Of a stretch of DNA of 64,000 nt, positions 3,022 to 36,509 are shown in pieces. Numbering within the stretch: position 1 is the stretch's first letter; every line of letters starts with the position of its first letter. Made by a program: the position numbers and the translations under genes. Origin of the DNA: a virus (lineage: Duplodnaviria; Heunggongvirae; Uroviricota; Caudoviricetes). The notes beneath the pieces are model-generated. The model saw only the letters and a list, made by a program, of their open reading frames with translations. It was not told where the DNA came from and made no database searches. The DNA lies in the IMG/VR virus record IMGVR_UViG_3300029746_000007, positions 19,505-83,504 of that record; one strand, written 5' to 3'.

Positions 3022-3455
3022 ATTATATAGAAATAGCAAAAGCAATAGAAGAGTTTGATTCTATGACATCAGAAGAAATTCAAAATAACATAAAACCCAT
3101 TATTAAAAGTTATAGCAAAGAGTTTCTTTCTGAGTATCTTGGGGTGTCAAAGGAAAATTTATATAGAATGTGTAAAAGCTTATTTGTAAGAAATAATGAA
3201 AAAATTAGATTTACAACATATATTAAAATTATGAGTTTAGGTGTTAATCCAAAATATAACGGGAAAAGATTCTACAAATCAAGAAAAACAAGCGTACAAA
3301 AATCTACTGGAAATAATAATGATATTGTTCATATCAGAACAAGAAAAACGCCGGAAGAAATCAAAGCAAAGCAGAAAGAATATCAGCATAGATATTACGT
3401 GGAAGTAACTAAGAAAAAACGAGCACAAAAGCGAATGGAAACAACAAGGAAATAG
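3018..3455 (+). CDS. hypothetical protein with basic C-terminus
   Basis: overlaps the upstream stop (ATGA coupling); KR-rich tail. Confidence 0.45.
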   Translation: MNYIEIAKAIEEFDSMTSEEIQNNIKPIIKSYSKEFLSEYLGVSKENLYRMCKSLFVRNNEKIRFTTYIKIMSLGVNPKYNGKRFYKSRKTSVQKSTGNNNDIVHIRTRKTPEEIKAKQKEYQHRYYVEVTKKKRAQKRMETTRK

Positions 3456-3476
3456 CAATTTCATTATAGAAATGGA

Positions 3477-4181: not shown

Positions 4182-4341
4182 TCAAAATGAAAACATGGTG
4201 TATTGATTTTGAAAATGAAGAATTAGGTATATCTGTAGACGCAAGAACTAAGGAACAGGCAGTGGAAATTTCGGAAAATCCTTGTAACTGGAAAGACGGA
4301 AAGAAGAGAAAAGTATCTTCTGTATATGAATTTTAGGGCGG

Positions 4342-4590
4342 TTGATGGAAATGAAAAATATAGATTATGATAAGTTAGCTATGGCAATTATCAATGAGTA
4401 TGAATCAGATCGTGCAGAATCTGGTAGGAAAGAAATTAGAAAAGGAATGAAATATGTGTTAGATAAATATAAATCTGAGCACGATAAAGAGATTATTGAT
4501 GAAATGCTTATGACCTTTACTGGATGGAATTTAGAAACACTTATTCAAAAGTCAGAAAAGATAAGTGATGATGAAGTAGAAGAGGAATAA
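4342..4590 (+). CDS. hypothetical protein
   Basis: plus-strand ORF. Confidence 0.4.
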   Translation: MMEMKNIDYDKLAMAIINEYESDRAESGRKEIRKGMKYVLDKYKSEHDKEIIDEMLMTFTGWNLETLIQKSEKISDDEVEEE

Positions 4591-4593
4591 TTT

Positions 4594-4878
4594 ATGACAG
4601 AAGAGCAGCGGAAATTTAAAGAGAAAATAAAACATGATTTAGGTTATGATGCTGATTTTAACACATATTGCATCACAAGAGGACGTGGATGGTCTAAGTC
4701 AGGTGGATCGTGCGGGGCTTGTATTGATGCAACTTTTACAGGTGATAACGGAATTACTGGAACTGTAACGTTACTACTTTGTCATCCATTAAGAGTATAT
4801 AACAGAAATAAATATAAATTGATAGAAAGAGATAATGAACGTACACATGATACTTTTATTGAGATTGAAGAGAAATAG
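4594..4878 (+). CDS. hypothetical protein
   Basis: plus-strand ORF starting right after the upstream stop. Confidence 0.4.
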   Translation: MTEEQRKFKEKIKHDLGYDADFNTYCITRGRGWSKSGGSCGACIDATFTGDNGITGTVTLLLCHPLRVYNRNKYKLIERDNERTHDTFIEIEEK

Positions 4879-4897
4879 GAAATGGAGATGATAATTA

Positions 4898-5167
4898 ATG
4901 AATGCAACAATACAAAATGGTCAAGTAACGTATGTCGGTTTTAATCCGAATGATAACAACAAATGGCTTATTGAGACAAGAGGCAGTTATACATACGTGA
5001 ACTATCAGAAAGATGAATTCACACAAGTGATCTTTGGATATGTAATAAAACAGTCCAATGGAAAATATAAAGCATTTCATGGATTAGATGAAAAGGATGC
5101 AAAGTATTTTGATACTGTTGATGATGGAATTAAATATGTTAAATCATTTAAAACAGAAATGGAGTAA
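4898..5167 (+). CDS. hypothetical protein
   Basis: plus-strand ORF after GGAAATGGAGATG. Confidence 0.4.
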   Translation: MNATIQNGQVTYVGFNPNDNNKWLIETRGSYTYVNYQKDEFTQVIFGYVIKQSNGKYKAFHGLDEKDAKYFDTVDDGIKYVKSFKTEME

Positions 5168-8405: not shown

Positions 8406-8714
8406 TTGATTGTAATGGAAAGAGCTAAAGCAATTATTATTGCACATGATTTTATTGAAAATATGAATCCTGATCATTGGAATGGGGTTGGAAACAAACC
8501 AAAATCTTTCAAAGATTACTCACAGCAGCGTTCATTAACAAAAAATGTAAATTTGGAAATTACATTTGTATATAATGAAGTAGACGGATGGCATCATTGT
8601 TGTGATTTGGTGAATAAATCAGATAACAGTTCTTTTGATATGTTAAGCGGAAATAGTATTAATTCAGTAATAGATCTTGCAAATACAATTATGGATTTAT
8701 GTAAGGACTATTAA
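8406..8714 (+). CDS. hypothetical protein
   Basis: plus-strand ORF; an intrinsic terminator follows it. Confidence 0.45.
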   Translation: MIVMERAKAIIIAHDFIENMNPDHWNGVGNKPKSFKDYSQQRSLTKNVNLEITFVYNEVDGWHHCCDLVNKSDNSSFDMLSGNSINSVIDLANTIMDLCKDY

Positions 8715-8773
8715 CAAGACAATGAAAGTCGGATTTCAAACGGAGGAAATAATCAAATAAATACATAGAGAAT

Positions 8774-8805
8774 ATAAGAGTGTCAAAACGATACTCTTAT
8801 TTTTT
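8774..8805 (+). terminator. rho-independent terminator
   Basis: 8-bp stem ATAAGAGT/ACTCTTAT with an 11-nt loop, then TTTTTT. Confidence 0.65.
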
Positions 8806-8976
8806 AATATGAAAGGAAAATTACAATGAAAAAAATATTTTGTGAAACCGAAGAAAAATTTTACGAGATGAAAAGAAGATATGACTTGGAAGATTGTGGA
8901 ATGTCTGGGTTGTATCCGGAATACCACTGGTATCAAGATGCAAATGCAAATGTGGCAGTATATAGGAGGTGCTGAT

Positions 8977-9228
8977 ATGTTATACAAAAAAGTTGCCGGA
9001 TTTGAGGATTATGATATTTTGGAACCGGCTATTAAAGACATAGACATTATGGATTTTCAGAAAGAAGTTGTAAATGAATATATAGATGTACCATTCACAA
9101 TCGTTGAGAAAGAAATAGAGACTGAGAAGAATAGACAGAAATACGAGATCAGTGATTCGTTCGTTACCGGTTTTGCAATATTCGTAATAGTTGTCGGACT
9201 AATAATGCTAAAAATTTGTTGGATTTAG
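8977..9228 (+). CDS. membrane-anchored hypothetical protein
   Basis: ATAGGAGGTGCTGAT RBS before the ATG at 8977; C-terminal TM stretch FAIFVIVVGLIMLKICWI; the 8881 start listed in the ORF track is probably too far upstream. Confidence 0.4.
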   Translation: MLYKKVAGFEDYDILEPAIKDIDIMDFQKEVVNEYIDVPFTIVEKEIETEKNRQKYEISDSFVTGFAIFVIVVGLIMLKICWI

Positions 9229-9242
9229 AAAGGAAATGAAAA

Positions 9243-9323
9243 ATGTACGAGTTAGGAAGAATAATTGGATATGTGATATTTTTTGGGTTTATTATTGGTA
9301 TCTTATGGGGAGCAGCACAATAA
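9243..9323 (+). CDS. tiny hydrophobic peptide (26 aa)
   Basis: AAAGGAAATG RBS; single TM helix; first of three tandem mini-ORFs. Confidence 0.3.
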   Translation: MYELGRIIGYVIFFGFIIGILWGAAQ

Positions 9324-9339
9324 GGGAAGGTGATATAAA

Positions 9340-9399
9340 ATGGTTAAAATGATTGTTGCTGGAATATTATATTTAATCGGATGTATTTTAGACAGGTAG
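9340..9399 (+). CDS. tiny hydrophobic peptide (19 aa)
   Basis: AGGGAAGGTGA RBS; second of three tandem mini-ORFs. Confidence 0.25.
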   Translation: MVKMIVAGILYLIGCILDR

Positions 9400-9408
9400 G
9401 TGATAAGA

Positions 9409-9477
9409 ATGTATGGGTTCGGGATAGTTCTACTTATCATCGGATTTGGAATAGCCGGAATTATTAAAGGTGAATAG
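9409..9477 (+). CDS. tiny hydrophobic peptide (22 aa)
   Basis: AGGTAGGTGA RBS; third of three tandem mini-ORFs. Confidence 0.3.
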   Translation: MYGFGIVLLIIGFGIAGIIKGE

Positions 9478-9478
9478 C

Positions 9479-9766
9479 ATGAGCAAAAGAAAAGGGAATC
9501 CGAAGAAGTCATCGGAATTTATTTGTCTAAGATGCTTGAGAACAGAAGGATGTACTTGTAACGGATTGCAGAGAATACACAATATGAGAAAAGAGAATCA
9601 TGTGAAAAATCAATGGTGCGCTTTTGGCAAAGAAGAAGTTAAAGCATTGGAGATTAGAGAAAAGGATTTTTATTGTGAAAAACGTATAGAAGCAGAGATT
9701 TTGCATGAGAAATATTATGGAGGAAATGATTATGCAGGGATTGGCAGTAAAAGATGTAGAATTTAA
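9479..9766 (+). CDS. Cys-rich hypothetical protein
   Basis: CLRCLRTEGCTC motif; probable start is the ATG at 9479 (the ORF track lists 9470). Confidence 0.4.
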   Translation: MSKRKGNPKKSSEFICLRCLRTEGCTCNGLQRIHNMRKENHVKNQWCAFGKEEVKALEIREKDFYCEKRIEAEILHEKYYGGNDYAGIGSKRCRI

Positions 9767-10874
9767 TGGTGCGGTATTGAGAGCTGCACAGGTGGAAGAT
9801 ATTGTATATGTAGGTGTTAGATGGGTATGTCAAGGACTTGGATTAAGTGACGGGAAAGTTAAAAGTGAAAGAAAGAAAATACAAGAAGATTTAGTTTTAA
9901 AGCAAGGGACGAGATTTCTTCCCTTGGGTACAGGTAATTCAGACAGCGAAGTTTTATGTCTAATATTAGACTATCTTCCATTATGGTTAGCAAAGATTTC
10001 TATTACTCCGACAATGAAAAGAGAAAATCCGGAATTGGTCAATAGGTTAATTGAATATCAGCTTAAAGCGAAAAATGTGTTAGCCGAAGCATTTCTTTCC
10101 AAGAGAAAAGAAGAGATTATTCCGGCAGTTAGGAATAATATGATTCAGATTCCTATTCCTGAAGCTCCAAACTATGCAGAAGAATTTGAAATTCTTTATG
10201 CAAAATTAGACGACCTGGAAGAACAGAATCAGAAATTATATAATGGTATGTCAAACATGGCGAAGTTGCTTCTTGACATGAGTTCACGAAAAGAAACACA
10301 ATTGCCGGATATTAAACCTGTAAAAGAAATTTCGGAAGAAGATTCGTGGAAACAGATTGTGTACGGCAAAGCGGAAAACATCGTATGTAATAGTAGTTTC
10401 CGTAAAACAGCAAGTGTCCTGAAACATATCTATGATTATATGAGACAGAATTATGGTATTTGTTGGGAACAGGAGGCAAAAGACTATAAGGAACGGAATA
10501 ATCTCAGCTATTCACCAAAGACCATTGAGGTTGTGTATCAAAATGAAGATCTTCGAAGTATTTTCATAGCTGTGTTGACAGATATGGAATATAAAGCAAA
10601 AGAAGCTAAGGAAAAGAAGAATGAAATTGATTGGTCAGACCAACAGATTCTTCCATTGGTTAAGAAATACAATGATCACAGTAATGGTTTCATGGTTACA
10701 TATAGAAAAGTGTACGTTAGGATGGAAGAAAATAGTCGAATCAGTTGGAAAAATCTAACCACTAGATACATAAATGAATGTGGTGGAAAACCAACCAAGA
10801 AAGATTTGATTAATACACGAAAGTCTTTACAGAAAAAATTTACAAAGGCAATTGAAGAATTGATGGCAGAATAA
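9705..10874 (+). CDS. phage antirepressor-like protein (P22 Ant N-terminal / ORF6N-like domain)
   Basis: N-terminus LAVKDVEFNGAVLRAAQVEDIVYVGVRWVCQGLGLS resembles the antirepressor N-domain family; the true start is probably the ATG near 9724-9731 after GGAGG. Confidence 0.55.
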   Translation: MRNIMEEMIMQGLAVKDVEFNGAVLRAAQVEDIVYVGVRWVCQGLGLSDGKVKSERKKIQEDLVLKQGTRFLPLGTGNSDSEVLCLILDYLPLWLAKISITPTMKRENPELVNRLIEYQLKAKNVLAEAFLSKRKEEIIPAVRNNMIQIPIPEAPNYAEEFEILYAKLDDLEEQNQKLYNGMSNMAKLLLDMSSRKETQLPDIKPVKEISEEDSWKQIVYGKAENIVCNSSFRKTASVLKHIYDYMRQNYGICWEQEAKDYKERNNLSYSPKTIEVVYQNEDLRSIFIAVLTDMEYKAKEAKEKKNEIDWSDQQILPLVKKYNDHSNGFMVTYRKVYVRMEENSRISWKNLTTRYINECGGKPTKKDLINTRKSLQKKFTKAIEELMAE

Positions 10875-11091
10875 TCGGATATTTGATATAATGGAGGTAC
10901 AATTATGAGAGTAATTAGTAGATTTGAGACTTGTGGCAAGAAAATGGTTACAGTTGTGATCGGAAAGAATGTTTCTGTTATGACAGAAAAAGATTATAAT
11001 TGGATTTGCAATAAAGAAAAAAATATGGTGTCCAGATAATAGGACACCTTATGTGATATTATATTAAAAAATATCAGGAGGTTGATGAATT

Positions 11092-11346
11092 ATGAAAATA
11101 AGAAAATATTGGTGCAATGCAATGAGCACCTATAATCAGAAATATGCAGAGTGCCCAGAAATAGACACATTAGAAAATGTGTCAGAAGAAATTGTAGTTG
11201 CGTTAAAGGGAGAAGATCACCCATTGCAAATAAATAAGCTGCCTGGCTTGTTGGCAGAAAGCGAAGCTAGAAAACGTGGTGAACGTATTTGGAGAAACGA
11301 ATATGGCGTATGGTCAGCAACACCGTTTGGAAAATTTGTTGATTAA
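11092..11346 (+). CDS. hypothetical protein
   Basis: AGGAGGTTGATGAATT RBS. Confidence 0.4.
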   Translation: MKIRKYWCNAMSTYNQKYAECPEIDTLENVSEEIVVALKGEDHPLQINKLPGLLAESEARKRGERIWRNEYGVWSATPFGKFVD

Positions 11347-11364
11347 AATGGAGGGCGATAAGAT

Positions 11365-11655
11365 ATGATTAAATATGAATTGAAAGAAAATTCGGTTGAG
11401 GTAAGGAAAAAAGATTTGGCTAAGGGGTGTGCAGTTGAGGATATGAATGCAGATCCGAAAATTATTAAGTCATTCGACAGCAAAGAAGAAGCATTAAATG
11501 AGCTTAAAAAGTATAAAACAGATGTATATGATTTTAGTTCTCCAGTTGGTGCAATGTGTAATGTAACGGAATATTATGTAGAGGAAAACGAATATGACGA
11601 AGACAACGAATGGATATCTGGTGGTGACATATGGGAAATTAGCGAAATAAAATAG
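11365..11655 (+). CDS. hypothetical acidic protein
   Basis: GGAGGGCGATAAG RBS. Confidence 0.4.
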   Translation: MIKYELKENSVEVRKKDLAKGCAVEDMNADPKIIKSFDSKEEALNELKKYKTDVYDFSSPVGAMCNVTEYYVEENEYDEDNEWISGGDIWEISEIK

Positions 11656-11717
11656 ACATAAAAGAATTGTTTCATGCGAGGTAAATGAATAATAGAATAA
11701 TAATTTTATTTAGATGG

Positions 11718-11780
11718 AAATACCACCAAATTAGTGGAAAAATGTGTTGACATACCACTTAATTGGTGGTATTTTATAAT
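11718..11780 (+). promoter_or_regulatory. promoter with a flanking 20-bp inverted-repeat operator (AAATACCACCAAATTAGTGG / CCACTTAATTGGTGGTATTT) around a TTGACA -35 box
   Basis: the two arms are reverse complements at 18 of 20 positions; TTGACA at 11747..11752; the right arm overlaps the spacer and -10; it lies upstream of the HTH gene 11807..12307. Confidence 0.45.
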
Positions 11781-11806
11781 TAGTAAATGACTAGGAGGAA
11801 ATATAT

Positions 11807-12307
11807 ATGGGAACTTGGACAATAAGCGTTGATGATGGTCAAATGAATAGTTTAAGAGAATATGGGACGACATATAAAACAGGCGGTGGAGCTGGTGGGT
11901 GTTTTGAACTTTCCGGCAATACATTGCAAGAGGCTGCCGACAATATATTAAAACCTTTAGCACTGGCATTTTCAAATGATAGTATTTTAGAATATCCAGA
12001 GCATGTACAAATAGAAGATGAACTCTTTGGGTATTCAAATGTTGCAGAAAGGCATATGAAGATCATTATTCCGTGTACATTTGAAGGATATCATGGAGAA
12101 TATAAGAGAGACGTAATTATTTACGTAGACACTCAGAAAATGAATGTTTCTGAGATGAGAGAACTTTTAAACGAGTCAAGAGCAGCATTTTCTAGACGGT
12201 ATAACATTCCAATTCGTACACTTGAAAATTGGGAGTCAGGAAAAAATAAATGCCCTGAGTATGTAAGAGAATTGCTTGAAAGAGCAGTAAAAGAAGACGT
12301 AAAATAG
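11807..12307 (+). CDS. DNA-binding protein with C-terminal XRE-type HTH (possible HicB-like fold)
   Basis: C-terminal NIPIRTLENWESGKNKCPEYVRELLERA matches the HTH_3 pattern; TAGGAGGAAAT RBS. Confidence 0.5.
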   Translation: MGTWTISVDDGQMNSLREYGTTYKTGGGAGGCFELSGNTLQEAADNILKPLALAFSNDSILEYPEHVQIEDELFGYSNVAERHMKIIIPCTFEGYHGEYKRDVIIYVDTQKMNVSEMRELLNESRAAFSRRYNIPIRTLENWESGKNKCPEYVRELLERAVKEDVK

Positions 12308-12402
12308 TATCGGAAGAAATAATAGATTCAAAGATAATGGAATTGTCGTAAGGCAGTTCCATTTCTGATATAATAGAGAATATAATATTGAGGTGATAAT
12401 AA

Positions 12403-12603
12403 ATGTATTATATAAAATGTGGAACAGATTATATTTGCAAAGGTTCTTATATTGTAGGTGGCGAAAAATACAAAGTTCTTGGAACAATTGAAGAAGCGAG
12501 AGCATTTAAAACATATTTAGGCGCACAAATAGCATTGGATACACTGATGGATACCAATGTTTATAACAATTTAATTGATTGTGAGATAGTTGAGGTGATA
12601 TAA
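12403..12603 (+). CDS. hypothetical protein
   Basis: GAGGTGATAATAA RBS. Confidence 0.35.
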   Translation: MYYIKCGTDYICKGSYIVGGEKYKVLGTIEEARAFKTYLGAQIALDTLMDTNVYNNLIDCEIVEVI

Positions 12604-12789
12604 ATGAACAAATTACAAAAAGTATGGAATGATCTGGATAAAGCATATGAACATATGGAAAATGCAATTGAGACATTATCAAAAATGGATACTGTAAGTG
12701 TTGAATTGAAAAATGCGGTCGAAAAATTTGATATGTCAGAAATCTCTTATATGAAGCAGCTTGTAGAAGAAATGATGGAGAATAAATAG
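12604..12789 (+). CDS. hypothetical protein
   Basis: start overlaps the upstream stop; GAGGTGATATAA RBS. Confidence 0.35.
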   Translation: MNKLQKVWNDLDKAYEHMENAIETLSKMDTVSVELKNAVEKFDMSEISYMKQLVEEMMENK

Positions 12790-13056
12790 ATGAAATGTAA
12801 AGTAAATAATTATATGGTTCTGATAGTTAATAACAATAAAGATCTAGTATTTCGTGGATTCGATATTTCTAAAAAATTTTTTTCAAATCATGATAAAGCC
12901 ATAGGATATATGATTGAGTATTCTAAAAAATTTAAAGCAGCAAAAGAAATCAACATAGAAAAAGAAATGGCATATATAAATTGTGGAGAATATTTCGTTG
13001 AAATCCATATTATTGACTGTTCAAAATATATAGAAATAATAGGAGTAGAATCCTAG
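12790..13056 (+). CDS. hypothetical protein
   Basis: plus-strand ORF starting right after the upstream stop. Confidence 0.4.
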   Translation: MKCKVNNYMVLIVNNNKDLVFRGFDISKKFFSNHDKAIGYMIEYSKKFKAAKEINIEKEMAYINCGEYFVEIHIIDCSKYIEIIGVES

Positions 13057-13111
13057 GAAATTTAAGAACAAATGAAACCAAGTTTTTATCCAACGGAATG
13101 GAGAATAGATT

Positions 13112-13327
13112 ATGAAAGAAATGTTAGAAAATAGATTGGCTGCTAAAAAAGAAGAACTGAAAAAGAAACAGGAATATTTTCAGATAGGCATTCAAAATAT
13201 AAAACAGCCTAGTTATGAGGATAATGCAATTAATGATTTGTTATATATGAAGAAACTTAAAACGGAAATTGCTGAGTTGGAACTTATGTTACAGATGTTC
13301 AGAGTGTATGAAGATGGAAATAAATAA
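13112..13327 (+). CDS. hypothetical coiled-coil protein
   Basis: AATGGAGAATAG RBS. Confidence 0.35.
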   Translation: MKEMLENRLAAKKEELKKKQEYFQIGIQNIKQPSYEDNAINDLLYMKKLKTEIAELELMLQMFRVYEDGNK

Positions 13328-15338: not shown

Positions 15339-15872
15339 GTGAAAATAACAAGATTTAAAGATATTCCTCAATTGACAAGAGCTGGAACGTACAATACCAA
15401 TATTCCATTAACTCATATTTTAAAAACGCTTTCAGAATGGGAAGAAGATGAATATTATCGTTTACAATTAAATCCTAATTTTCAACGTGGGCATGTATGG
15501 ACAGAAATTCAACAAATTGCATATGTTGAATTTTTACTGCGTGGAGGGAAATCAGCAAAGGTAATTTATTTTAACAAACCAAGTTGGCAGATGGTTAAAC
15601 CTATTAATGGATATGATGATTTTGTATGTGTTGATGGTTTGCAAAGAATTACAGCAGTAACTAAATTTTTAAAAAATGAAATTAAAGTCTTTGGTAGTTA
15701 CTATAAAGATTTTGAGGACAAAATACCTCTCAGTGTAGACCTGATTTTCAATGTAAATGATCTTAAAAGTGAAAAAGAAGTTCTTCAATGGTATGTTGAT
15801 ATGAACGCCGGTGGAACACCACATACAAATGAAGAGATTGAGCGTGTTAAGAAAATGATTGGAAAATTATAA
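15339..15872 (+). CDS. DUF262 (ParB-like, GmrSD N-terminal-type) domain protein
   Basis: motifs NFQRGHVW and VDGLQRITAV match the DUF262 QR..VW / DGQQR signatures; GTG start after AGCAGGTGAAGTAAA. Confidence 0.55.
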   Translation: MKITRFKDIPQLTRAGTYNTNIPLTHILKTLSEWEEDEYYRLQLNPNFQRGHVWTEIQQIAYVEFLLRGGKSAKVIYFNKPSWQMVKPINGYDDFVCVDGLQRITAVTKFLKNEIKVFGSYYKDFEDKIPLSVDLIFNVNDLKSEKEVLQWYVDMNAGGTPHTNEEIERVKKMIGKL

Positions 15873-18009: not shown

Positions 18010-18163
18010 GTTACTTAAAAATAAATAGACGGAGAATAAATAATAGGAAAGGAAGTGATAGATATGTGTGAAAAGATTGATGAAAAGAATCCGGATGTTC
18101 AGGAGAAAGAAGTCAGGCGAATGGAAGTTTGGGAATATTTAGAATGGAAGGTTGGTGAGAAGA

Positions 18164-19213
18164 ATGAAAAAGACAGATAAATTAAAAAAACAATTACAGG
18201 ATAAAATCATCACAATGGATGAATTAGATATTACAATGGAAGACATCGGATATAATCTGGTAGAAATTGATGACAATGAAAACAACGTGATTAAATATAC
18301 AAATGGAAAGTCATTTATCAATGTATATGTCATGCATGATGGACAAGAATATATGGTAACGGATATTACGATGTCCAATAAGAAACGTGGTAGCACAACT
18401 GTAAGAGCATTTCATACAATTGAAGAAATAAAAGGAATGATGGATTGGTTCAGAGACAATGAGCAATATGATAATTTCTTGACTTTTATGTTAGGCTTAT
18501 TCCTTGCAAGACGTGTTGGTGATACGTTGTCATTAAAGTGGAGAGACTTCTACTTTGAAAATGGTAGAAGAAAAGAAAGTCTTAATACATTAATTGAAGA
18601 TAAAACCGACAAAATAGTTGATATGCATATTTCTGATGTTACGTGGAAATATATTGATTGGTATTGTGAAAAAACAAATATTGATCCAAAAGAACATCTC
18701 AATGAGGATATCTTTAAATCTTTGCATAAAGATTGGTTGCCGAATAATTATACGAAAAAACAATATGATGAAGCTGTAGAAAAAATGGAATCTTCATATC
18801 GTAATCAATTTAAAAAGGCAGCAGAAGCGTGTGGAATCAATGGTGTAAGTACACATAGCACACGTAAGTCATTTGGATATATAGCGCATGAAATTAACAG
18901 ATTTGATCCAGATTGCTATCCGGTATTACAGAGTGTGTATGGTCATGGTTCTGTAGAAACAACAAAAAGATACATTGATTGCATAAGAGAGAAAGCAAAT
19001 AAGATGTTTGAAGATGTAGCAAAATACATTGAAGATGTAGATAATGGGATAACACCTGAAATAAAGAATTTACTCATTGTAGCACTTTCGACAAATGATT
19101 TACGAGATGTATTATATACTGCTCTTAAACTTGGAAGAGAAACGAATGTAGAAGATGATGTTGAAAGTATGAATATGCTATTATCTATGGTAGAAGAAAA
19201 GCGTGTATCATGA
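18164..19213 (+). CDS. int: tyrosine recombinase / phage integrase
   Basis: motifs ARRVGDTLSLKWRDF (Arg I), HSTRKSF (HxxR box) and HGSVETTKRYI (catalytic Tyr) are typical of the tyrosine-recombinase family; the ATG at 18164 follows GGTGAGAAG. Confidence 0.85.
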   Translation: MKKTDKLKKQLQDKIITMDELDITMEDIGYNLVEIDDNENNVIKYTNGKSFINVYVMHDGQEYMVTDITMSNKKRGSTTVRAFHTIEEIKGMMDWFRDNEQYDNFLTFMLGLFLARRVGDTLSLKWRDFYFENGRRKESLNTLIEDKTDKIVDMHISDVTWKYIDWYCEKTNIDPKEHLNEDIFKSLHKDWLPNNYTKKQYDEAVEKMESSYRNQFKKAAEACGINGVSTHSTRKSFGYIAHEINRFDPDCYPVLQSVYGHGSVETTKRYIDCIREKANKMFEDVAKYIEDVDNGITPEIKNLLIVALSTNDLRDVLYTALKLGRETNVEDDVESMNMLLSMVEEKRVS

Positions 19214-19793: not shown

Positions 19794-19828
19794 AAAAGAC
19801 GATACTTATTTGGTATCGTCTTTTTCGT
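19794..19828. terminator. bidirectional rho-independent terminator
   Basis: perfect 10-bp stem AAGACGATAC/GTATCGTCTT with a 7-nt loop, flanked by an A-run and a T-run; it overlaps the last codons of the minus-strand repressor. Confidence 0.7.
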
Positions 19829-20153
19829 TATATTCTTTTATTAAAGCCTTTACTCGTTCTGAAAATACTTCATCTATAATTTCTCCAAAACTAACGTGTG
19901 CATCTTTAGCGAATTCTTCTTTTGGTAATTGAGAATTATCCTTTTTTGATTTGCTATAATCTGTGAATAAGTCATTGGGTGTACAATGGAATAAAACACA
20001 AAGTTTTTGAAGAGTTTCAAATTGAATACTTGTTGCCTCTCCTTTATATAATGCATAGAAAGTAGATCTTGATATCCCAAGATATTTTATTATTTCTCCT
20101 TTTGATAATTCACAGTCGTTAATAAATTCAGAAATATTTATCTTCATCTTCAT
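19806..20153 (-). CDS. XRE-family HTH transcriptional repressor (CI-like)
   Basis: N-terminus ELSKGEIIKYLGISRSTFYALYKGEATSIQFETLQKLCVLFHCTPNDLF fits the HTH_3 pattern; it is the only convincing minus-strand gene and diverges from the toxin promoter. Confidence 0.8.
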   Translation of the reverse strand: MKMKINISEFINDCELSKGEIIKYLGISRSTFYALYKGEATSIQFETLQKLCVLFHCTPNDLFTDYSKSKKDNSQLPKEEFAKDAHVSFGEIIDEVFSERVKALIKEYNEKDDTK

Positions 20154-20270: not shown

Positions 20271-20299
20271 TTGACAAACAGTCTGAAATATCGTACAAT
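20271..20299 (+). promoter_or_regulatory. sigma-A type promoter TTGACA-17nt-TACAAT
   Basis: exact -35 consensus at 20271..20276, 17-nt spacer, TACAAT at 20294..20299; about 40 nt upstream of the toxin ATG. Confidence 0.65.
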
Positions 20300-20341: not shown

Positions 20342-20743
20342 ATGGAAAGTAAAAGAAATTTACATCGCTACGATATAATTGAAGCAGAAATTATAATGAA
20401 AGAAACATCTGGATCAATACAGAAGAAAAAACGTCCATATGTGATAGTTGGCAATGAGTTAGGCACAGCAACTGCTCCAACTGTAATTGCTATGCCTTTA
20501 ACTCATGTAATAAAAAGAAAAAATATGCCGGTGCATGGTTGTATTGAAGCTAAAGAAGGAAATGGATTACATCTGTACTCGATGGTTCTTGGCGAACAAC
20601 CTCAGACATTGGACAAAAATCATGAAATCATCAAAAAACTTGGTAATATTGCAGATCAAAAACAAAGAGATATTGTAAATAAAGTTTGCTTTAATACATT
20701 GTTTTACGGTGAAAATATTAAATGGGAGGAAGTGTTAGCATGA
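20342..20743 (+). CDS. mazF: MazF/PemK/EndoA-family endoribonuclease toxin homolog
   Basis: aligns along its length with B. subtilis EndoA (recalled from memory): KKRPYVIVGNELGTATAPTVIAMPLTHVIKRKNMPVHGCIEAKEGNGL vs [61 protein letters not shown] RBS. Confidence 0.75.
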   Translation: MESKRNLHRYDIIEAEIIMKETSGSIQKKKRPYVIVGNELGTATAPTVIAMPLTHVIKRKNMPVHGCIEAKEGNGLHLYSMVLGEQPQTLDKNHEIIKKLGNIADQKQRDIVNKVCFNTLFYGENIKWEEVLA

Positions 20744-21030
20744 TGAGTATTAATATTGTAGATAAAAAAACAGCTAAACAAATAATAGATAATGCACCTG
20801 TAGATAAAATTACAATAATCTGCTTGGATAGAAAAACACTTATACATGAGAAACCAGAAAGAAGAGAAAAAAAATATGGAAAAGAATTAGTAGAAATTGC
20901 GAAAAGCATTTCTTATGATGAAAATGATATTTTTGGAATTCTCTCGCTTGATGGAGAATTGAAAAGTAATCGTGATATTCTAAGAAATATTCTTTTCCCT
21001 AAATGGAATAAAACAAACAAATGTTCGTAA
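20740..21030 (+). CDS. hypothetical protein (overlaps the end of the toxin gene)
   Basis: ATG at 20740 preceded by GGGAGGAAG; the ORF-track start at 20722 contains the RBS itself. Confidence 0.4.
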   Translation: MMSINIVDKKTAKQIIDNAPVDKITIICLDRKTLIHEKPERREKKYGKELVEIAKSISYDENDIFGILSLDGELKSNRDILRNILFPKWNKTNKCS

Positions 21031-21093
21031 AGATGTTGACAAGAACATTTGTTCGAAGCTATAATAAACATGTCGAAAATAACAGAATAAAAA

Positions 21094-21134
21094 AGGCAAG
21101 TTCACATAATGGGCTGCCACCCGTGAACTTGCCT
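21094..21134 (-). terminator. hairpin that acts as a rho-independent terminator for leftward transcription
   Basis: 12-bp perfect stem AGGCAAGTTCAC/GTGAACTTGCCT with a 17-nt loop; an A6 run on the plus side gives a T-run on the minus strand. Confidence 0.45.
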
Positions 21135-21358
21135 AGTGAATTAACACCATAGCCGTTAACGACTATAACTATATTATTACATATTATCAAGAATATAGTC
21201 AAGGCAAATTCTGCCAATTTTTCGCAAATGTAATAATTAAATATTGTAACTCTGTGAAAGAGAATACGTTCTTGAACGATAAAAGACGTACAAGGTTTAT
21301 TTCTTGTGTCATTTTATCGAAATCGAGGATTATTTCTTGAAAATATTTTTATGAAAGG

Positions 21359-22078
21359 GTGATTTCTTTGGGCTATTTTATGCTCGTTTGTCGCAAAAAG
21401 AAGCTCTACTTACGCATTGGCGAAGGTGGAAGTCCTATTGTTTGTGGCAAAAAGGAAGCAAAAGTCTTCGATGAAATAAAAGCACAGAATGTTTTAGATC
21501 ATCTGCCAAAAGCATTGCAAAAGATGAATTTTGTAAAAGAGCCGGTAGTACAATCTGAGCTTAATATTTCTGATGAAGAAGAAATTCCAAGAAAAAAGAT
21601 AGTAATTGTTGAAAAAACTGTGGTAAAAAACACTTCTTATAATAAGAAGACAAAGAAAGTTATCAAAAATACTTCTTATAAAACACCACAAAATGTTATG
21701 AATTGGGTCGATAGAGTAACGCAATGCAACGATTTGTTCTTAGATGCCGAAGAGAGAAGACGTGAATTGCTAGACTGCTTATCAAATACGGATAAGAATC
21801 TATCGAATATATTACATAAAATTGAACTTGAAGATGATATGAATGCCTGCATGGGCTTCATGCAATACAAAAAGATAAGAGAATGTCTCCGTCGTAGAAG
21901 AATAGTAAAAGATGAAATATACATATTAGATGTAATTCTTGCGAAGCCAACTGGTGAACATAAAATCCCTTCATCACAAAAAATACTAGGAAGTGTAAAA
22001 CATTTGGAGAATAGAGTATTCAAAGTAAGAGAAACAGAAGATATTGAATGGCTTGACAAATTATGTGAGGGGGAGTGA
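21359..22078 (+). CDS. hypothetical basic protein
   Basis: 239-aa ORF; start uncertain (GTG at 21359 or ATG at 21380). Confidence 0.4.
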   Translation: MISLGYFMLVCRKKKLYLRIGEGGSPIVCGKKEAKVFDEIKAQNVLDHLPKALQKMNFVKEPVVQSELNISDEEEIPRKKIVIVEKTVVKNTSYNKKTKKVIKNTSYKTPQNVMNWVDRVTQCNDLFLDAEERRRELLDCLSNTDKNLSNILHKIELEDDMNACMGFMQYKKIRECLRRRRIVKDEIYILDVILAKPTGEHKIPSSQKILGSVKHLENRVFKVRETEDIEWLDKLCEGE

Positions 22079-22083
22079 TACCG

Positions 22084-22773
22084 ATGGCATCTTTAAAAGA
22101 TATGGAAGATAACAACTTGGAAGACACTGACGAATACAGAAAGAGAGAAGCTTGGATTGAGAAAATTTGTAATGAATATGCGAGTGATAATTTGCGAAAA
22201 CTCAAAATGTTCATTTCGAAAAAAATAAGTGCATTTGGAATTTCGCATAATGATCAAAGATATTTGGACTTTATAAGTATGGCGAATTGGCAATTATATA
22301 TGCTATTAAGAACTTTTGACCCAGATAAAAACGATTCAGTACATGGATACATAGAAGCGAAAATTGTTTATAAGATGAATACTGCATTGAGAGATGTGAG
22401 TACACAAAAACTTGTTAATTATGCAAGAGATGAGAACGGGAATATAAAAGAAGATGAAGATGGATATCGAACAATTATAACAAATGTCTCTTTAGAATAT
22501 AAAAATGAAGATGGATATTCTGTTGGAGATGTTTGTAAATCTAAATTCGATATACATAAAGAAGCATTTGGCGAAGAATATAGCGATGAGTATTACAAGT
22601 ATATGGCGAAACTTGGCAAAAAAGAACGAAGAGTTGCCAAGAAAATTGCGCAAGGATATTCACAACCTGAGATTGCTGAAATTTTACATATGACAATAAA
22701 TGAAGTCCAAGATTGTGTAAGAGAAATGAAAGAAACAAAAAATGTTTCGATATTTTATAAGAGGAAGTACTAG
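22084..22773 (+). CDS. sigma-70 family (ECF-like) sigma factor
   Basis: region-2-like FISMANWQLYMLLRTFDPDKNDSVHGYIEAKIVYKMNTALRD and region-4 HTH KKERRVAKKIAQGYSQPEIAEILHMTINEVQDCV; GGGGGAG RBS before the ATG at 22084. Confidence 0.55.
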   Translation: MASLKDMEDNNLEDTDEYRKREAWIEKICNEYASDNLRKLKMFISKKISAFGISHNDQRYLDFISMANWQLYMLLRTFDPDKNDSVHGYIEAKIVYKMNTALRDVSTQKLVNYARDENGNIKEDEDGYRTIITNVSLEYKNEDGYSVGDVCKSKFDIHKEAFGEEYSDEYYKYMAKLGKKERRVAKKIAQGYSQPEIAEILHMTINEVQDCVREMKETKNVSIFYKRKY

Positions 22774-22775
22774 GT

Positions 22776-24221
22776 ATGTGTATGTATGGAAGAGATAAGA
22801 CAAAAAAAGATCCTTATATGATAAGAATCATAATGAAAATGTTTAGTAGAGGTGAATTACATAAAGATTATATTCTCCAAAGGCAAAGTGGACAGTTTGA
22901 TATAGAAACTCGTGATGGCTTAGTTGCCTCAATTTTACGATCAGAAGATATCGATCCAATTAAATTATGTGAGCAGTTGATTGGAGAAAGAATAATCATT
23001 TGGTTAATTGATGGATTACAGAGAATTACAACCTGCGATGATTTTCGAAATGGAAAATTTAAAATGGGCAAAAATCTCAGGATGCCATATACATATTATC
23101 AGAAAGATGGACAGGTTGTTGAATTCGACATGAGAGGAAAGGGTTGGTCAGATCTTCCAGAAGAATTACAGGATAGATTTGATGACTATTCATTTGATGT
23201 TGTAAAACATCTGGATTGTACAGATGAAGAAATTGCGTATCATATGGCAAGATGTAACCGTTGTGCAAAGATGAATGCAAATCAGAAGGGAATATTATAT
23301 ATGTACAAAATTGCCGGATACGTTAAAAAGCTTTCACAGAATCATAGATTTTTCTTCGATTGTGGAAATTATACATCTACTGAAAAGAAAAAAGGTGTAA
23401 TAGATCGTGTGGTAAATGAAACAATTATGCTGATTTATCATCTTGACGATTGGAAACGTGGAAAAGCAATGAACATTTATTTGAATGAAAATGCAAACAA
23501 AGAAGAATTTGATGAATTTGAAAACGAATTAGACAGATTGAATAAATTTATTGACCAGGGCACAACTGGAAAGCTTTTTAATAGTAAAGATAGTTTGTTG
23601 TGGTTTGCTACATATCATGAGTTCCTTACATATAACCTTGACGATGAAAAATTTGACGGATTCTTAAAAGAGTTTATGTCTACATTAAAAGATAAGAAAT
23701 TTAAAGAGTATGATGACATGTCATTTGAAGAATACGGAAAACAGAAAAGCACGAAGGATAGAAAGGTAATTATTACTAAGATGGACATGCTTGAAAAACT
23801 CATGAAAGAGTACTTACATATTGAAGACATTGACGAAGTTGAATTGCCAGAAGAAGTAAAAAATGAAGAAACCCCGTCACTTGATGATGAATTAGAACCA
23901 ATTGAATTCTTACATAAATACGTAAGTACTGAGATTACAGAAAATGATCTGGACGAATATTATGATGACATTAATTATTTCACTAAAAAAAGGCTGATAC
24001 CAAAGGATCACAACCTTATAAATGAAAAGAATGAGATATCATTCCTTGCTATTGTTGCATATGCGATGAGAAAAGAGAAAGATAATGAATTTGAAATGTG
24101 GCTCAAGCGATATGCGATTACACATAGAAGTGTTACTGCAAAAACGCAGCGAGATAATTATATCGAAATGGTGAATAATTTTGAGAGAGCATTAAATATG
24201 AAAAGAGGTGTGGTTGCATAA
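22776..24221 (+). CDS. DUF262 (ParB-like) domain protein, 481 aa with acidic C-terminal region
   Basis: motifs YILQRQSGQFD and IDGLQRITTCDDF match the DUF262 signatures; no DUF1524/HNH partner domain is visible. Confidence 0.55.
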   Translation: MCMYGRDKTKKDPYMIRIIMKMFSRGELHKDYILQRQSGQFDIETRDGLVASILRSEDIDPIKLCEQLIGERIIIWLIDGLQRITTCDDFRNGKFKMGKNLRMPYTYYQKDGQVVEFDMRGKGWSDLPEELQDRFDDYSFDVVKHLDCTDEEIAYHMARCNRCAKMNANQKGILYMYKIAGYVKKLSQNHRFFFDCGNYTSTEKKKGVIDRVVNETIMLIYHLDDWKRGKAMNIYLNENANKEEFDEFENELDRLNKFIDQGTTGKLFNSKDSLLWFATYHEFLTYNLDDEKFDGFLKEFMSTLKDKKFKEYDDMSFEEYGKQKSTKDRKVIITKMDMLEKLMKEYLHIEDIDEVELPEEVKNEETPSLDDELEPIEFLHKYVSTEITENDLDEYYDDINYFTKKRLIPKDHNLINEKNEISFLAIVAYAMRKEKDNEFEMWLKRYAITHRSVTAKTQRDNYIEMVNNFERALNMKRGVVA

Positions 24222-24757
24222 TGAAAACAATGAAATTATCCGATATTAAAATTACGGAGGCTTTTGAAAGTACTCATCCAAGTCCAGATAAAATTAGGAA
24301 GAAAAAAGAGCAGTGGCTAAAGACTGGTAGACAGGGGAAATACATAGTTGTAAATAAAGATGGATATCTTGTAGATGGATATATTACATATCTTATTATG
24401 AAAGAGTTAGGCGTTGAAAAAGCGAAAATTATTAAAAAGAAATCATGGATGAATCCGATTGAAAGTTTGGAAATTAAAGAACCTGCCTATAGAACAGAGA
24501 ATACTACATATGTGTGGGGTGTTCATCCAAATTCTCCGGATAATAAACTGTATGTTTGGAGAGTTCCGAATGGTGGAAACTGGAATGAATTCAAAAAGAA
24601 TATAACCGTAGGAGATATGATTTTCTGTTACGCAAAAGGGAAGGTGTCTCCGGTGATCATTAAAGCGATTCAGACTACAGATGTTTGCCCGACACCATTG
24701 GATGTGAAGAAGGTTTGTAGTAAGAATATTGTGAAAGAAAGTGAGAACAATGCCTGA
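24221..24757 (+). CDS. ParB N-terminal-like domain protein with C-terminal PUA/EVE-like region
   Basis: GKYIVVNKDGYLVDGYITYLIMKELGVEKAKII fits the ParB N-domain pattern; C-terminal YVWGVHPNSPDNKLYVWRVPNGGNW block suggests an EVE/PUA-type fold; ATGA overlap with the upstream gene. Confidence 0.45.
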   Translation: MKTMKLSDIKITEAFESTHPSPDKIRKKKEQWLKTGRQGKYIVVNKDGYLVDGYITYLIMKELGVEKAKIIKKKSWMNPIESLEIKEPAYRTENTTYVWGVHPNSPDNKLYVWRVPNGGNWNEFKKNITVGDMIFCYAKGKVSPVIIKAIQTTDVCPTPLDVKKVCSKNIVKESENNA

Positions 24758-24922
24758 TATTACGATGTGCATGAGTAAAGATTGTCCCAAAAAGAATGAA
24801 TGTTATCGTTCTATGGCAAAACCAGATAAATATTATCAAAGCTATGCTGATTATGGAAAGATTTGCTTAGAAAATGATTATAAATACTTTTGGGAAACAA
24901 TTGTTCAAAAGAAAGAATAAAT
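24755..24922 (+). CDS. small Cys-rich protein (CxxC-like)
   Basis: MCMSKDCPKKNECYRS; its stop codon lies inside a 22-bp direct repeat. Confidence 0.3.
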
Positions 24923-24929
24923 CAATAGA
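24908..24929. repeat. 22-bp direct repeat copy 1 (AAAGAAAGAATAAATCAATAGA)
   Basis: exact second copy at 25165..25186. Confidence 0.8.
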
Positions 24930-25164
24930 TAATATTTCTGGTAGCCACTAAGCAGGGTAATTATCGTGTCGGATAATTACGCCAGTGTTCACAAACAAGT
25001 TCCCATCTGTTAAGACGGAACCGCTTGTATGCACGTACGTGCACCTTTGGTCTACTCATACAATCAACTCCTTTCATGTGTCGTTAAGGTTTAAATACCA
25101 TACGATCACTTGGGACAAGTTGAAATTGCACTTAGTGACTACCATTAATATACATTATACGTCT

Positions 25165-25186
25165 AAAGAAAGAATAAATCAATAGA
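25165..25186. repeat. 22-bp direct repeat copy 2
   Basis: exact copy of 24908..24929; the pair flanks a 235-bp GC-richer segment. Confidence 0.8.
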
Positions 25187-25422
25187 CATGAATTTTAGGT
25201 TTCAAAGGCAGAAAAGTTTGGCGACCGACCTGCCTAAGAAACCCAGGATAACAAAGGATAAACCTTGTTAGTTCTTATTATAAATAGTTCTAATGGCTTG
25301 GTCAAGTCAGTTTTATCCTTAAGAAATTAAAAATATCGCAGGTGGTTTTGCTCCTGAAGGTGAGTATCAATACAAACCAGAATCTATGTAAATAATATGT
25401 GTAAAGATTTGAGGTTTTGGAT

Positions 25423-25515
25423 ACCTATAGAATTACATTGGTACAAAACCGAAATCCATCTGCAAGTCCTGTCCAAACAGATTCAGACACCTATAGAATT
25501 ACATTGGTACAAAAC
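25423..25515. CRISPR. CRISPR-like minimal unit: two identical 27-bp repeats (ACCTATAGAATTACATTGGTACAAAAC) around a 39-bp GC-richer unique spacer
   Basis: repeat 1 at 25423..25449, spacer 25450..25488, repeat 2 at 25489..25515; the flanks differ; iterons are an alternative reading. Confidence 0.35.
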
Positions 25516-25595
25516 AGAGATATCTAATTTAACATAGTAACAAAAAACATAATTAAAATTAATATACAAATTTATATAAGTAATGAGGTGATAAA

Positions 25596-25745
25596 AATGT
25601 TCATGTTGGTAACACATATTATATTGATGCTATTTTGCATATATGAAGTGGCTTATCAGGATAGAAAATCTCAAAAAGCCATATGGACATGCATGGCGAT
25701 ATGTTGGCTTGGAATGATACTTTGTGATATTCCGACGGTGTTTTG
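25596..25745 (+). CDS. small membrane protein (2 predicted TM helices)
   Basis: AATGAGGTGATAAAA RBS; MFMLVTHIILMLFCIYEV ... AIWTCMAICWLGMILC. Confidence 0.3.
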
Positions 25746-35453: not shown

Positions 35454-36509
35454 TTGATGACAGATTATTTCTCGCAAAAACCTAATAGTATTGTTGTTTG
35501 TTCGAATGGTGGAGCGCAAAGAGGACATACTGTAGTTACCTCAACTGGAATCAGACATGTCTTTCATCATTTTGGCTCAGGGACTTTCAATCAAGCGGAT
35601 ACATATCTCTCAGAAGACTTTATTTGCAATCCGATTATTTTTAAGCAAGAATACAATGAATTAAAACAACTAGGCTATTGTCCGAACATTTATATAAATC
35701 AACATTGTATGGTAACAACTCCATATGATATGATGGCTAATCAAATTATAGAAGAGAAACGTGGAAAGAATAAGCATGGAAGTTGTGGTCTTGGAATTTA
35801 TGAGACAATTAAAAGATATAAAGCCGGAGTAACTACTTTGTATGCCTCCGATTATATCCGAGATTATTACTTAAAGATTTTCGACAGAGAAGGAATTGTC
35901 TTAACTAAGAAATGGGAAGATTTGTTCAATGATTCAGGAATTTACGATCATTGTTTGGAAGATTGGGATTTTATGAACGAAGTAGCAACAACGATTTCTG
36001 ATGAATGTTTTCTCAATGAGTACGAGAATATAGTATTTGAAGCTGCACAAGGTCTTTTACTTGATCAAAATAATCTGAAATATTATCCACATCTTACACC
36101 CTCTAACACAGGAATAAAAAATCCAAAGAAAATAATTGAAAATGTGAAATGGGACGATGATATTAACATTGAGACATGTTATGTGTCAAGGACATATTTA
36201 ACAAGGCATGGAGCAGGGCAATTCCCATCTGAATGTGACAAGTCGCTAATCAATCAAAGAATGTATGATAAGACTAATGTTCCAAATCCGCATCAAGATA
36301 CTTTGAGATATGGTTTGCTCGATTTAGATCAATTATACGATAGATGTATAAAAGATGTTGAAGGTTTTGGACATAAAAAATCTATTGTGTTTACACATAT
36401 AAATGAATACTCCATGAGTAAAAAAAGAATTAAGAGTCTATTTGACGATTGGGACATCTATTTTTCAGACGGCGAGACACATAATGATATATATAGAATA
36501 AATAATTAA
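35454..36509 (+). CDS. adenylosuccinate synthetase-family protein (PurA homolog; candidate PurZ-type enzyme); N-terminus unresolved
   Basis: SNGGAQRGHT, FEAAQGLLLD and TRHGAGQFPSE align with PurA motifs GGHNAGHT, FEGAQGTLLD and TRVGAGPFPTE (PurA sequence recalled from memory); the P-loop GDEGKG is encoded in frame at 35436..35453, before the first start codon and after an in-frame TAG at 35418. Confidence 0.7.
   Translation: MMTDYFSQKPNSIVVCSNGGAQRGHTVVTSTGIRHVFHHFGSGTFNQADTYLSEDFICNPIIFKQEYNELKQLGYCPNIYINQHCMVTTPYDMMANQIIEEKRGKNKHGSCGLGIYETIKRYKAGVTTLYASDYIRDYYLKIFDREGIVLTKKWEDLFNDSGIYDHCLEDWDFMNEVATTISDECFLNEYENIVFEAAQGLLLDQNNLKYYPHLTPSNTGIKNPKKIIENVKWDDDINIETCYVSRTYLTRHGAGQFPSECDKSLINQRMYDKTNVPNPHQDTLRYGLLDLDQLYDRCIKDVEGFGHKKSIVFTHINEYSMSKKRIKSLFDDWDIYFSDGETHNDIYRINN

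Follow-up and report, generated by a model that had tools for sequence, protein, structure and literature searches.

An alternative sigma factor usually shares its transcript with a regulator encoded downstream, or else has a regulatory domain fused to its own C-terminus, and the place immediately downstream of region 4, or fused to it, is the position of an anti-sigma factor or of a C-terminal regulatory extension. In alternative sigma factors of the extracytoplasmic function (ECF) type, for example the ECF41/ECF42 groups, a coupled partner gene follows the sigma gene, and certain lineages carry the partner as an extension at the C-terminal end of region 4. SigN (ZpdN), encoded by plasmid pBS32 of Bacillus subtilis, has one promoter under LexA repression and is induced when DNA is damaged (PMC10601692). 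In the Menshen defence system, the sensor NsnA combines a ParB-DUF262 domain with a helical DNA-binding domain named 'ParBDB' (PMC12065111). In this report, we describe a phage operon in which these elements are brought together. It lies in a 64,000-nucleotide stretch (hereafter the window) of a virus of the Caudoviricetes, at positions 19,505 to 83,504 of IMG/VR record IMGVR_UViG_3300029746_000007, and encodes in this order a 232-aa protein (p232), a sigma-70-family factor, a 481-aa NsnA-like DUF262 protein, a 178-aa protein and a 56-aa protein (p56). Our main finding is that the sigma factor and the NsnA-like protein are neighbours almost without exception and are fused into one polypeptide in many relatives. 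On balance, we think it probable that this operon serves a temperate gut phage as its lytic switch, in which a phage sigma factor derepressed by the SOS response acts with a dedicated partner that binds DNA and nucleoside triphosphate (NTP).

Each of the systems described so far resembles this locus in part. The 481-aa protein shares with Menshen NsnA a ParB-DUF262 core containing the QR, DGxQR and N motifs, followed by ParBDB (PMC12065111), but differs from it in being phage-encoded and linked or fused to a sigma factor, in its additional acidic linker and C-terminal helical domain and in the F of its motif I; moreover, neither the NsnB transducer nor the NsnC inPIN-nuclease effector was matched here. 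Unlike the type IV enzymes GmrSD, BrxU and SspE, it has no DUF1524 or HNH at its C-terminus, and it is therefore not a restriction enzyme of this type. SigN is the closest described case of a LexA-repressed, damage-induced sigma factor (PMC10601692); however, the present sigma factor has no detectable sequence similarity to the plasmid records (tblastn), and no partner or anti-sigma factor is known for SigN, whereas the DUF262 protein is obligatorily coupled or fused here. Compared with the partners of ECF-type factors, the protein found at this position belongs to the ParB superfamily, with predicted NTP and DNA binding, and is not a zinc-binding or transmembrane anti-sigma factor or a SnoaL/TPR extension. 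Finally, KorB (RK2), VirB (Shigella) and DndB are repressors or anti-silencers that act alone or with small partners. To our knowledge, none of these three is paired with or fused to a sigma factor, and we know of no demonstration of CTP clamp activity for DUF262. Full-text literature searches brought up no article that connects sigma factors in phages with DUF262 or ParB-like proteins, and nothing on DUF5839, the family to which the C-terminal domain of the 178-aa protein belongs; the survey of Menshen systems is silent on NsnA forms that are encoded by phages or fused to sigma factors (PMC12065111). The parts of the locus are of known kinds (phage sigma factor, LexA control, DUF262/NsnA fold), and it is the obligatory coupling of sigma factor and DUF262 protein that appears to be new.

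The sigma factor and its NsnA-like partner

The window is AT-rich (GC about 31%), and nearly all of its genes lie on the + strand. The five genes of the operon (Table 1) follow one another at very short distances: the p232 stop codon lies 5 nt ahead of the sigma ATG, the TAG stop of the sigma gene is followed after 2 nt by the ATG of the 481-aa gene, the latter overlaps the 178-aa gene in a TAATG, and the start of p56 overlaps the end of the 178-aa gene. The ribosome binding site (RBS) of a coupled gene sits within the end of the preceding gene. A first-pass annotation, made from the sequence alone, had reported the middle three as translationally coupled; the open reading frames (ORFs) and their junctions confirm that these genes are real and coupled, within an operon that is larger than first reported. 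For the sigma gene, an alternative start exists at an upstream GTG (22075), which would give a protein of 232 aa. Contigs from human-gut metagenomes encode an identical 481-aa protein sequence, and homologues with 36-49% identity to it are found on gut-phage contigs of about 110-200 kb, which is roughly the size we infer for the phage genome itself.

Conservation of the neighbourhood was examined in a sample of 90 loci, 80 of which came from a search with the 481-aa protein and 10 of which had been fetched earlier. Their ORFs were called and searched with iterated profiles of the window proteins. These loci span 36-94% identity to the 481-aa protein of the window. The gene order Xre (on the - strand), PemK, (p96), p232, sigma, NsnA-like recurs almost without exception: the sigma gene is present in 88 loci, p232 in 85, directly upstream of sigma, PemK in 81 and Xre in 72. 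The sigma gene adjoins the NsnA-like gene in 88 of the 90 loci, the two being separated by -4 to 54 nt. Of the 90 loci, 84 lack the 178-aa gene, and the six that have it form the window's own clade. The constant partner of the DUF262 protein is thus the sigma factor, and not the 178-aa protein.

This association extends to gene fusion. At one locus (L093), the upstream neighbour of the 178-aa homologue is a 699-aa ORF (2899-4995) that aligns with the sigma profile over residues 4-196 (E 9e-40) and then with the NsnA-like profile over residues 221-696 (E 3e-93). Such sigma::NsnA-like ORFs, 690-766 aa long and covering both profiles from end to end, were found in about 30 of the fetched loci. 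The acidic linker and the C-terminal part are retained in the fused forms, where the NsnA-like profile is covered to about position 475. The fusions fall into 11 clusters that share less than 62% identity, and in a distance tree they form two deep, adjacent clades. An exhaustive search of a library of 1.84 billion cluster representatives gave, in 50%-identity clusters, 1231 members of the NsnA-like family at E<=1e-3 and 304 at E<=1e-30; of the best 150 representatives, 55 were fusions in which the sigma part is complete, 75 were full-length proteins without fusion and 20 were fragments. Among the fusions, neither a restriction to the assemblies of one study nor internal stops were seen, and because they are old and widespread, the fusion is not an assembly artefact. 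Gene fusion is standard evidence for physical joint action, which is what we would predict for the sigma factor and the NsnA-like protein. Relatives of the DUF262 protein in Bacillus phage, in pBS32-like plasmids and in Paenibacillus plasmids were also considered; they have no annotated sigma neighbour.

The first-pass annotation had called the sigma protein ECF-like, and comparison with known families agrees with this call. The NCBIfam model sigma70-ECF (TIGR02937) matches residues 53-210 with an E value of 7.8e-9 (35.4 bits, under the curated cut-off of 42.9), phrog_1740, a sigma factor family, matches with E 3.9e-5, and Pfam gives sub-threshold region-4/GerE matches only. As a word-indexed search for homologues gave only 3 sequences, a family profile was built from an alignment (A3) of 12 sequences gathered from the neighbours of NsnA-like genes. 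This profile aligned with FliA (1rp3; E 1.1e-9) over chain residues 28-221, which span regions 2-4, and with SigH (E 4e-8), as well as with many SigA region-2 segments. By these matches, the protein is best classed as a divergent yet genuine member of the sigma-70 family.

The sigma-like protein could conceivably serve as the DNA-binding sensor module of an NsnA-type protein, the whole being a DndB-like regulator or repressor that does not engage the RNA polymerase core. Indeed, additional DNA-binding domains, some resembling sigma region 1.1, are found at the N-terminus of 23% of NsnA proteins, and type II NsnA proteins carry an N-terminal winged helix-turn-helix and other sensor domains (PMC12065111); the fused forms described above place the sigma part at exactly that N-terminal position, and the sigma family stays under the curated cut-offs of all sigma models. 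However, the profile aligned with FliA, SigH and SigA reaches beyond a helix-turn-helix (HTH), as it spans region 2, which binds the core and the -10 element, in addition to region 4. Moreover, in most lineages, including that of the window, the sigma factor is a separate protein with the typical size of an alternative sigma factor. We consider a pure sensor module to be unlikely.

As for the 481-aa protein, its assignment to DUF262 in the first-pass annotation holds indirectly, through its homologues. The window protein alone has no PF03235 match at E<=0.1; among its homologues, 16 of the 26 close ones and 22 of the 31 diverse ones match the domain (best E 1.4e-9), and NCBI labels phage and plasmid relatives with 23% identity as DUF262. 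Q35-R36, D79-G80 and N161 do not vary at all in the 31 diverse sequences, R83 hardly varies, and we judge motifs I (QRxxxW), II (DGxQR) and III (FxxxN) to be present. Of the motifs first proposed, QR..W and DGLQR, the QR and DGLQR residues are conserved, but the W is an F in the clade of the window, with a spacing of QRxxxx(W/F). The nearest model is PADLOC NsnA (E 1e-12), which aligns with residues 10-347 over positions 47-383 of its 385, and relatives of the 481-aa protein score up to 2.5e-17 on it. BrxU was the top structural match of the NsnA-like protein; searches of the PDB with family profiles from a shallow (A1) and a diverse (A5) alignment gave nothing useful. What had been described as a long acidic C-terminal domain is acidic only in the linker (21 D/E versus 4 K/R), while the rest is a helical domain of about 75 aa that is absent from NsnA; AlphaFold2 (AF2) predicted helices at 367-480 with confidence. 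No similarity was detected between the NsnA-like partner and sigma or anti-sigma domains. From its motifs and profile matches, the 481-aa protein is predicted to consist of DUF262 followed by ParBDB and to group with the DUF262 sensors of defence systems, and the intact nucleotide-binding motifs together with the ParBDB domain suggest NTP-dependent DNA binding.

The promoter region and the leader

The 350-nt gap ahead of p232 contains a promoter of the host sigma-A type, the spacer of which holds a palindrome, GAACATTTGTTC, that has the form of a LexA box (Table 1). The pattern GAAC-N4-GTTC occurs only once in the 64-kb window, at this site. LexA operators have been described as GAACN4GTTC in Bacillus and as GAACnnnnGTTT/GTTC in clostridia (PMC4234289). 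We compared 128 related loci with enough upstream sequence, allowing at most one mismatch in the box; 87 of them carry a -35 element, a box and a -10 element ahead of the p232/sigma operon, arranged as in the window. Across relatives, the palindrome is kept while its flanks diverge, and the GTTT variants typical of clostridia are common. Since no GAAC-N4-GTTC box is present in the Xre-PemK intergenic region, and since the Xre proteins are diverse (14 clusters), a host factor is favoured over a phage repressor as the ligand of the palindrome. Judging from this conservation, LexA would bind the box and expression of the operon would be inducible by DNA damage.

Between promoter and p232 lies a structured leader with a strong hairpin of 11-12 bp at about 21094-21134, which has no U-tract. 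The leader matches no Rfam family, and its conservation is limited to close relatives.

One further motif is distributed with a marked strand bias. The 9-mer TAGAGAATA occurs 14 times on the + strand of the window and not once on the - strand (1.8 expected), with sites including 2999, 8766, 12374, 40864, 45952, 46486 and 49682, and its strand ratio reaches 313:1 across 2.4 Mb of related loci. About half of the sites are intergenic, some of them directly ahead of an RBS or of a hairpin. The motif can be likened to a sigma-H-type -10 element (RnnGAAT). We do not claim it as the promoter of the phage sigma factor, as it has no consistent -35 partner and no consistent distance to gene starts.

The 178-aa protein and the other genes of the window

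The 178-aa protein is composed of a ParB/Srx-fold N-domain (aa 1-74) and a small beta domain, DUF5839 (aa ~88-170). The AF2 model of the 178-aa protein is confident (pLDDT 91), and that of the DUF262 domain of the 481-aa protein is unreliable. The N-domain of the 178-aa model matches the sulfiredoxin/ParB N-domain structurally, in agreement with the first-pass call of a ParB N-domain, and matches in BFVD are limited to this ParB/Srx N-domain. Within the family, DGYxxY is invariant, the phosphate-binding Arg is not conserved, and there is no HTH. The C-terminus had been read as a PUA/EVE-like reader of modified bases, and this reading did not survive: DUF5839 matches 29 of 32 homologues, whereas EVE matches the 178-aa protein with an E value of 0.057 over 40 residues and reaches E<=1 in only 2 of the 32, and no EVE, ASCH, YTH or PUA fold was recognised.

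A search starting from the 178-aa protein yielded 80 loci of its own. The gene lies directly 3' of the NsnA-like gene in 26 of these, one small gene apart from it in 11, and 2-5.6 kb downstream in 29; in 12 loci there is no NsnA-like gene within the flank, and in the remaining 2 it is present but not upstream. In small phages, the 178-aa homologue adjoins a DNA methyltransferase and replication genes. Because of these contexts and counts, together with its presence in only 6 of the 90 loci examined above, the 178-aa protein is a frequent but dispensable, lineage-variable accessory.

These observations bear on the function that the first-pass annotation had proposed, namely sensing of modified DNA, anti-restriction or superinfection exclusion. 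In such a prophage defence, the DUF262 protein would sense foreign or modified DNA together with the 178-aa 'reader', with the effect that incoming phages are blocked or that the phage's own, possibly modified, DNA is protected. The kinship with the Menshen sensor NsnA speaks for it, as does DUF262 itself, which is the sensing or NTPase part of GmrSD, BrxU and SspE (PMC12065111). A PurA/PurZ-like gene and FolD are also present in the window, as is a second small DUF262 gene 7 kb upstream that matches several defence models, and defence genes induced by the SOS response exist. However, no effector was found in the operon. Pfam and PADLOC revealed no HNH, DUF1524 or other nuclease domain there, the 481-aa protein included, which confirms the lack of an HNH/DUF1524 partner noticed initially; PADLOC found no NsnB, NsnC or other Menshen model among p232, the sigma factor and the 178-aa protein, and the sole match of the sigma factor was an unrelated and weak one to CARF (E 0.0011). 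The NsnA-like gene is not variable cargo, its synteny with regulatory genes being fixed family-wide, and a complete sigma factor is fused to it in more than a third of the family clusters. The genes taken for a sign of genome modification were correctly seen as far as FolD and a PurA-like gene are concerned, but the structures matched by the latter are all of PurA, and no PurZ chain scored at E<=1e-3; Z-genome chemistry or genome modification is no more than a possibility. As the proposed function rested on the pairing of DUF262 with an EVE reader, it lost its basis with the EVE call, and the variable presence of the 178-aa gene and the coupling to the sigma factor likewise disfavour it. We regard a defence role as improbable.

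The presence in one operon of two proteins with a ParB/Srx fold, a putative one in the case of the 481-aa protein, next to a PemK toxin and a tyrosine recombinase, also recalls the maintenance of a P1-like plasmid prophage, in which the two proteins would be centromere-binding factors, PemK an addiction toxin and the recombinase a dimer resolvase; distant DUF262+ParBDB relatives do occur on large Bacillus and Paenibacillus plasmids. Against this, no ParA, ParM or TubZ-type Pfam match was found among the window ORFs of at least 200 aa, in a search that covered 64 kb of a probably >110-kb genome, and no parS-like array of repeats, tandem or dispersed, was found in or around the locus. ParB_N (PF02195) matches neither the 481-aa nor the 178-aa protein, neither has a ParB HTH or a GERRxR box, and the 178-aa protein lacks the phosphate-binding Arg. 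Moreover, a sigma factor is not a sensible fusion partner for a centromere-binding protein. The first-pass annotation had already set plasmid partition aside and noted that ParA is absent, and was right to do so, as neither ParA nor a parS array was found within the window; this alternative seems to us highly improbable.

The two outer genes of the operon, p232 and p56, are conserved members without a recognisable fold. No match to p232 was found in Pfam, NCBIfam, PADLOC or the PDB, even with a family profile. The Cys-rich p56 (C7, C12, C18 and C39) matches phrog_20586 (E 2.7e-6) and is located 3' of the NsnA-like gene in 40 loci. In its place, part of the fused lineages encode a zinc-ribbon protein of 66 aa (CxxC...CxxC), which lies between p232 and sigma::NsnA. 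Downstream of the operon, the window has a non-coding gap of about 800 nt (24921-25723) with no Rfam match. It includes a direct repeat of 36 nt (25420-25455 and 25486-25521; 92% identical and 66 nt apart), and a 25-nt repeat is found at 24905 and 25162. In relatives (L005, L006 and L008, at 11-18 kb; L002, at 8669-13245; L001, at 9973-11019), the 3' flank of the operon is a cargo hotspot. The cargo is a cassette for NAD salvage (isochorismatase, NMNAT-like, NAPRTase, NAD synthase and NUDIX), or TerD genes with a P-type ATPase, or a reverse transcriptase.

Table 1. Positions of the operon, its control elements and other features in the window (p96, 96 aa; a dot marks a feature without strand)
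Feature	Position	Strand	Remarks
Host sigma-A-type promoter	21036..21065	+	TTGACA-18-TATAAT; 12/12 consensus match
LexA (Cheo/SOS) box	21043..21054	.	GAACATTTGTTC; within promoter spacer
Structured leader	21068..21379	+	~310 nt, between promoter and p232; fold z -5.1 vs shuffles
p232	21380..22078	+	Operon gene 1; 232 aa; conserved; no recognisable domain
Sigma-70-family factor	22084..22773	+	229 aa from ATG; regions 2 and 4
NsnA-like DUF262 gene	22776..24221	+	481 aa
ParB-DUF262 nucleotide-binding domain (predicted)	22776..23270	+	aa 1-165; motifs, PF03235 in relatives, PADLOC NsnA
Helical ParBDB-type domain (predicted)	23271..23822	+	aa 166-349
Acidic linker and family-specific helical C-terminal domain	23823..24221	+	aa 350-405 and aa 406-481
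ParB-N/DUF5839 accessory gene	24221..24757	+	178 aa
p56	24750..24920	+	56 aa, Cys-rich; last coupled gene
Tyrosine integrase	18152..19213	+	Phage_integrase E 4.4e-9; phrog_216 5e-30
Xre/HTH_26 repressor-like gene	19806..20153	-	HTH_26 E 9e-13
PemK/p96 promoter	20271-20299		TTGACA-17-TACAAT; promoter scan
PemK/MazF-like gene and overlapping p96	20342..21030	+	PemK_toxin E 1.5e-15
P22 antirepressor N-domain protein	9705-10874	+	P22_AR_N E 3.5e-16
Second DUF262-only protein	15339-15872	+	177 aa; PADLOC NsnA 4e-10, PD-T4-2_A 3e-8, HEC-06, type II REase model
Adenylosuccinate-synthetase-like (PurA-like) protein	35454-36509	+	351 aa, short; PurA structures only
HD-domain protein and FolD	61074-61829, 63052-63864	+	Near replication genes

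Just upstream of the operon lie the integrase, Xre and PemK genes, so that the lysogeny-type context noted initially is borne out. PemK occupies the 'cro' position, divergent from Xre, and is followed by p96, an arrangement kept in 81 of the 90 loci; no recognisable antitoxin was found at the PemK locus. A homologue of the second, 177-aa DUF262 protein lies upstream of the integrase in many relatives. The presence of a P22_AR_N protein in addition to the LexA box suggests that induction can occur by more than one path. Further along the window are genes for DnaE (56951-60265), a DnaB-like protein, DHH/DHHA1 and ClpP, which belong to replication, and two tRNA genes, on which the tools disagree in part: ARAGORN reports a tRNA-Met, and a tRNA-Pro at 47198-47277, whereas Rfam confirms the first (46690-46765) and puts the second at 47341-47408.

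A proposed lytic switch

Starting from the observed gene structure, domain identities, synteny, gene fusion and conserved promoter and operator sequence, we propose the following scheme for the lytic-switch operon. In the lysogen, host LexA would sit on the GAAC-N4-GTTC box between the -35 and -10 elements and keep the operon off. DNA damage would remove LexA, upon which host RNA polymerase would transcribe the five coupled genes as one unit, and the phage sigma factor would redirect RNA polymerase to phage middle or late promoters. The NsnA-like protein would be the dedicated partner of the sigma factor, binding DNA and nucleotide and touching the sigma factor physically. The direction of its effect may be either of two. 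It may act like an anti-sigma factor or a C-terminal regulatory extension, releasing the sigma factor only once it senses the appropriate DNA or NTP state, or it may act as a co-activator that tethers the sigma-RNA polymerase complex to phage DNA. The 178-aa protein, with its degenerate ParB/Srx domain, would bind DNA as an accessory factor that is optional to the scheme. Strict synteny, fusion to the sigma factor and predicted SOS control all argue that the NsnA-like gene is part of the phage's regulatory switch and not a defence moron, and its DUF262 module may contribute DNA sensing to that switch.

Several points weigh against this scheme. The nearest characterised relatives of the 481-aa protein (NsnA, GmrSD and SspE) are defence sensors and not transcription factors, and its N-terminal DUF262 domain was modelled by AF2, from a 26-sequence alignment, with such low confidence that the model is unreliable there. 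The palindrome, which we matched to the LexA operators of Bacillus and Clostridium (PMC4234289), could in principle bind a phage repressor in place of LexA. The full promoter-plus-box arrangement is missing in 41 of the 128 loci compared, 13 of which have no recognisable box. Lastly, k-mer enrichment established no cognate promoter motif for the phage sigma factor in the window.

A more specific form of the scheme is also conceivable, though we hold it only tentatively and think it rather unlikely. DUF262/ParBDB would here be an NTP-gated DNA clamp or a sensor of DNA state that is coupled to the sigma factor, a ParB-superfamily counterpart of T4 gp45/gp55. It would be loaded onto phage DNA, perhaps where this is replicating, damaged or chemically distinct, and would bring the sigma-RNA polymerase complex to these sites or license it there, so that lytic transcription would be coupled to the state of the phage genome. 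If this were true, the protein would represent an unprecedented class of sigma co-regulator, and DUF262 would have a role beyond immunity.

DUF262 is known almost solely as a sensor or NTPase of anti-phage nucleases, and ParB-fold proteins are known as partition clamps and occasionally as repressors; in a very large family of human-gut phages, such a module is firmly tied to a sigma factor. Should the two proteins act jointly, they would define a new type of sigma-factor regulator and would offer a tractable system for learning what DUF262 senses, with the fusions as ready-made reporters. The Menshen sensor and the phage regulator would then look related, whichever of the two arose first. As for the lysogens, the conserved LexA box provides a simple, testable model for the induction of abundant uncultured gut prophages.

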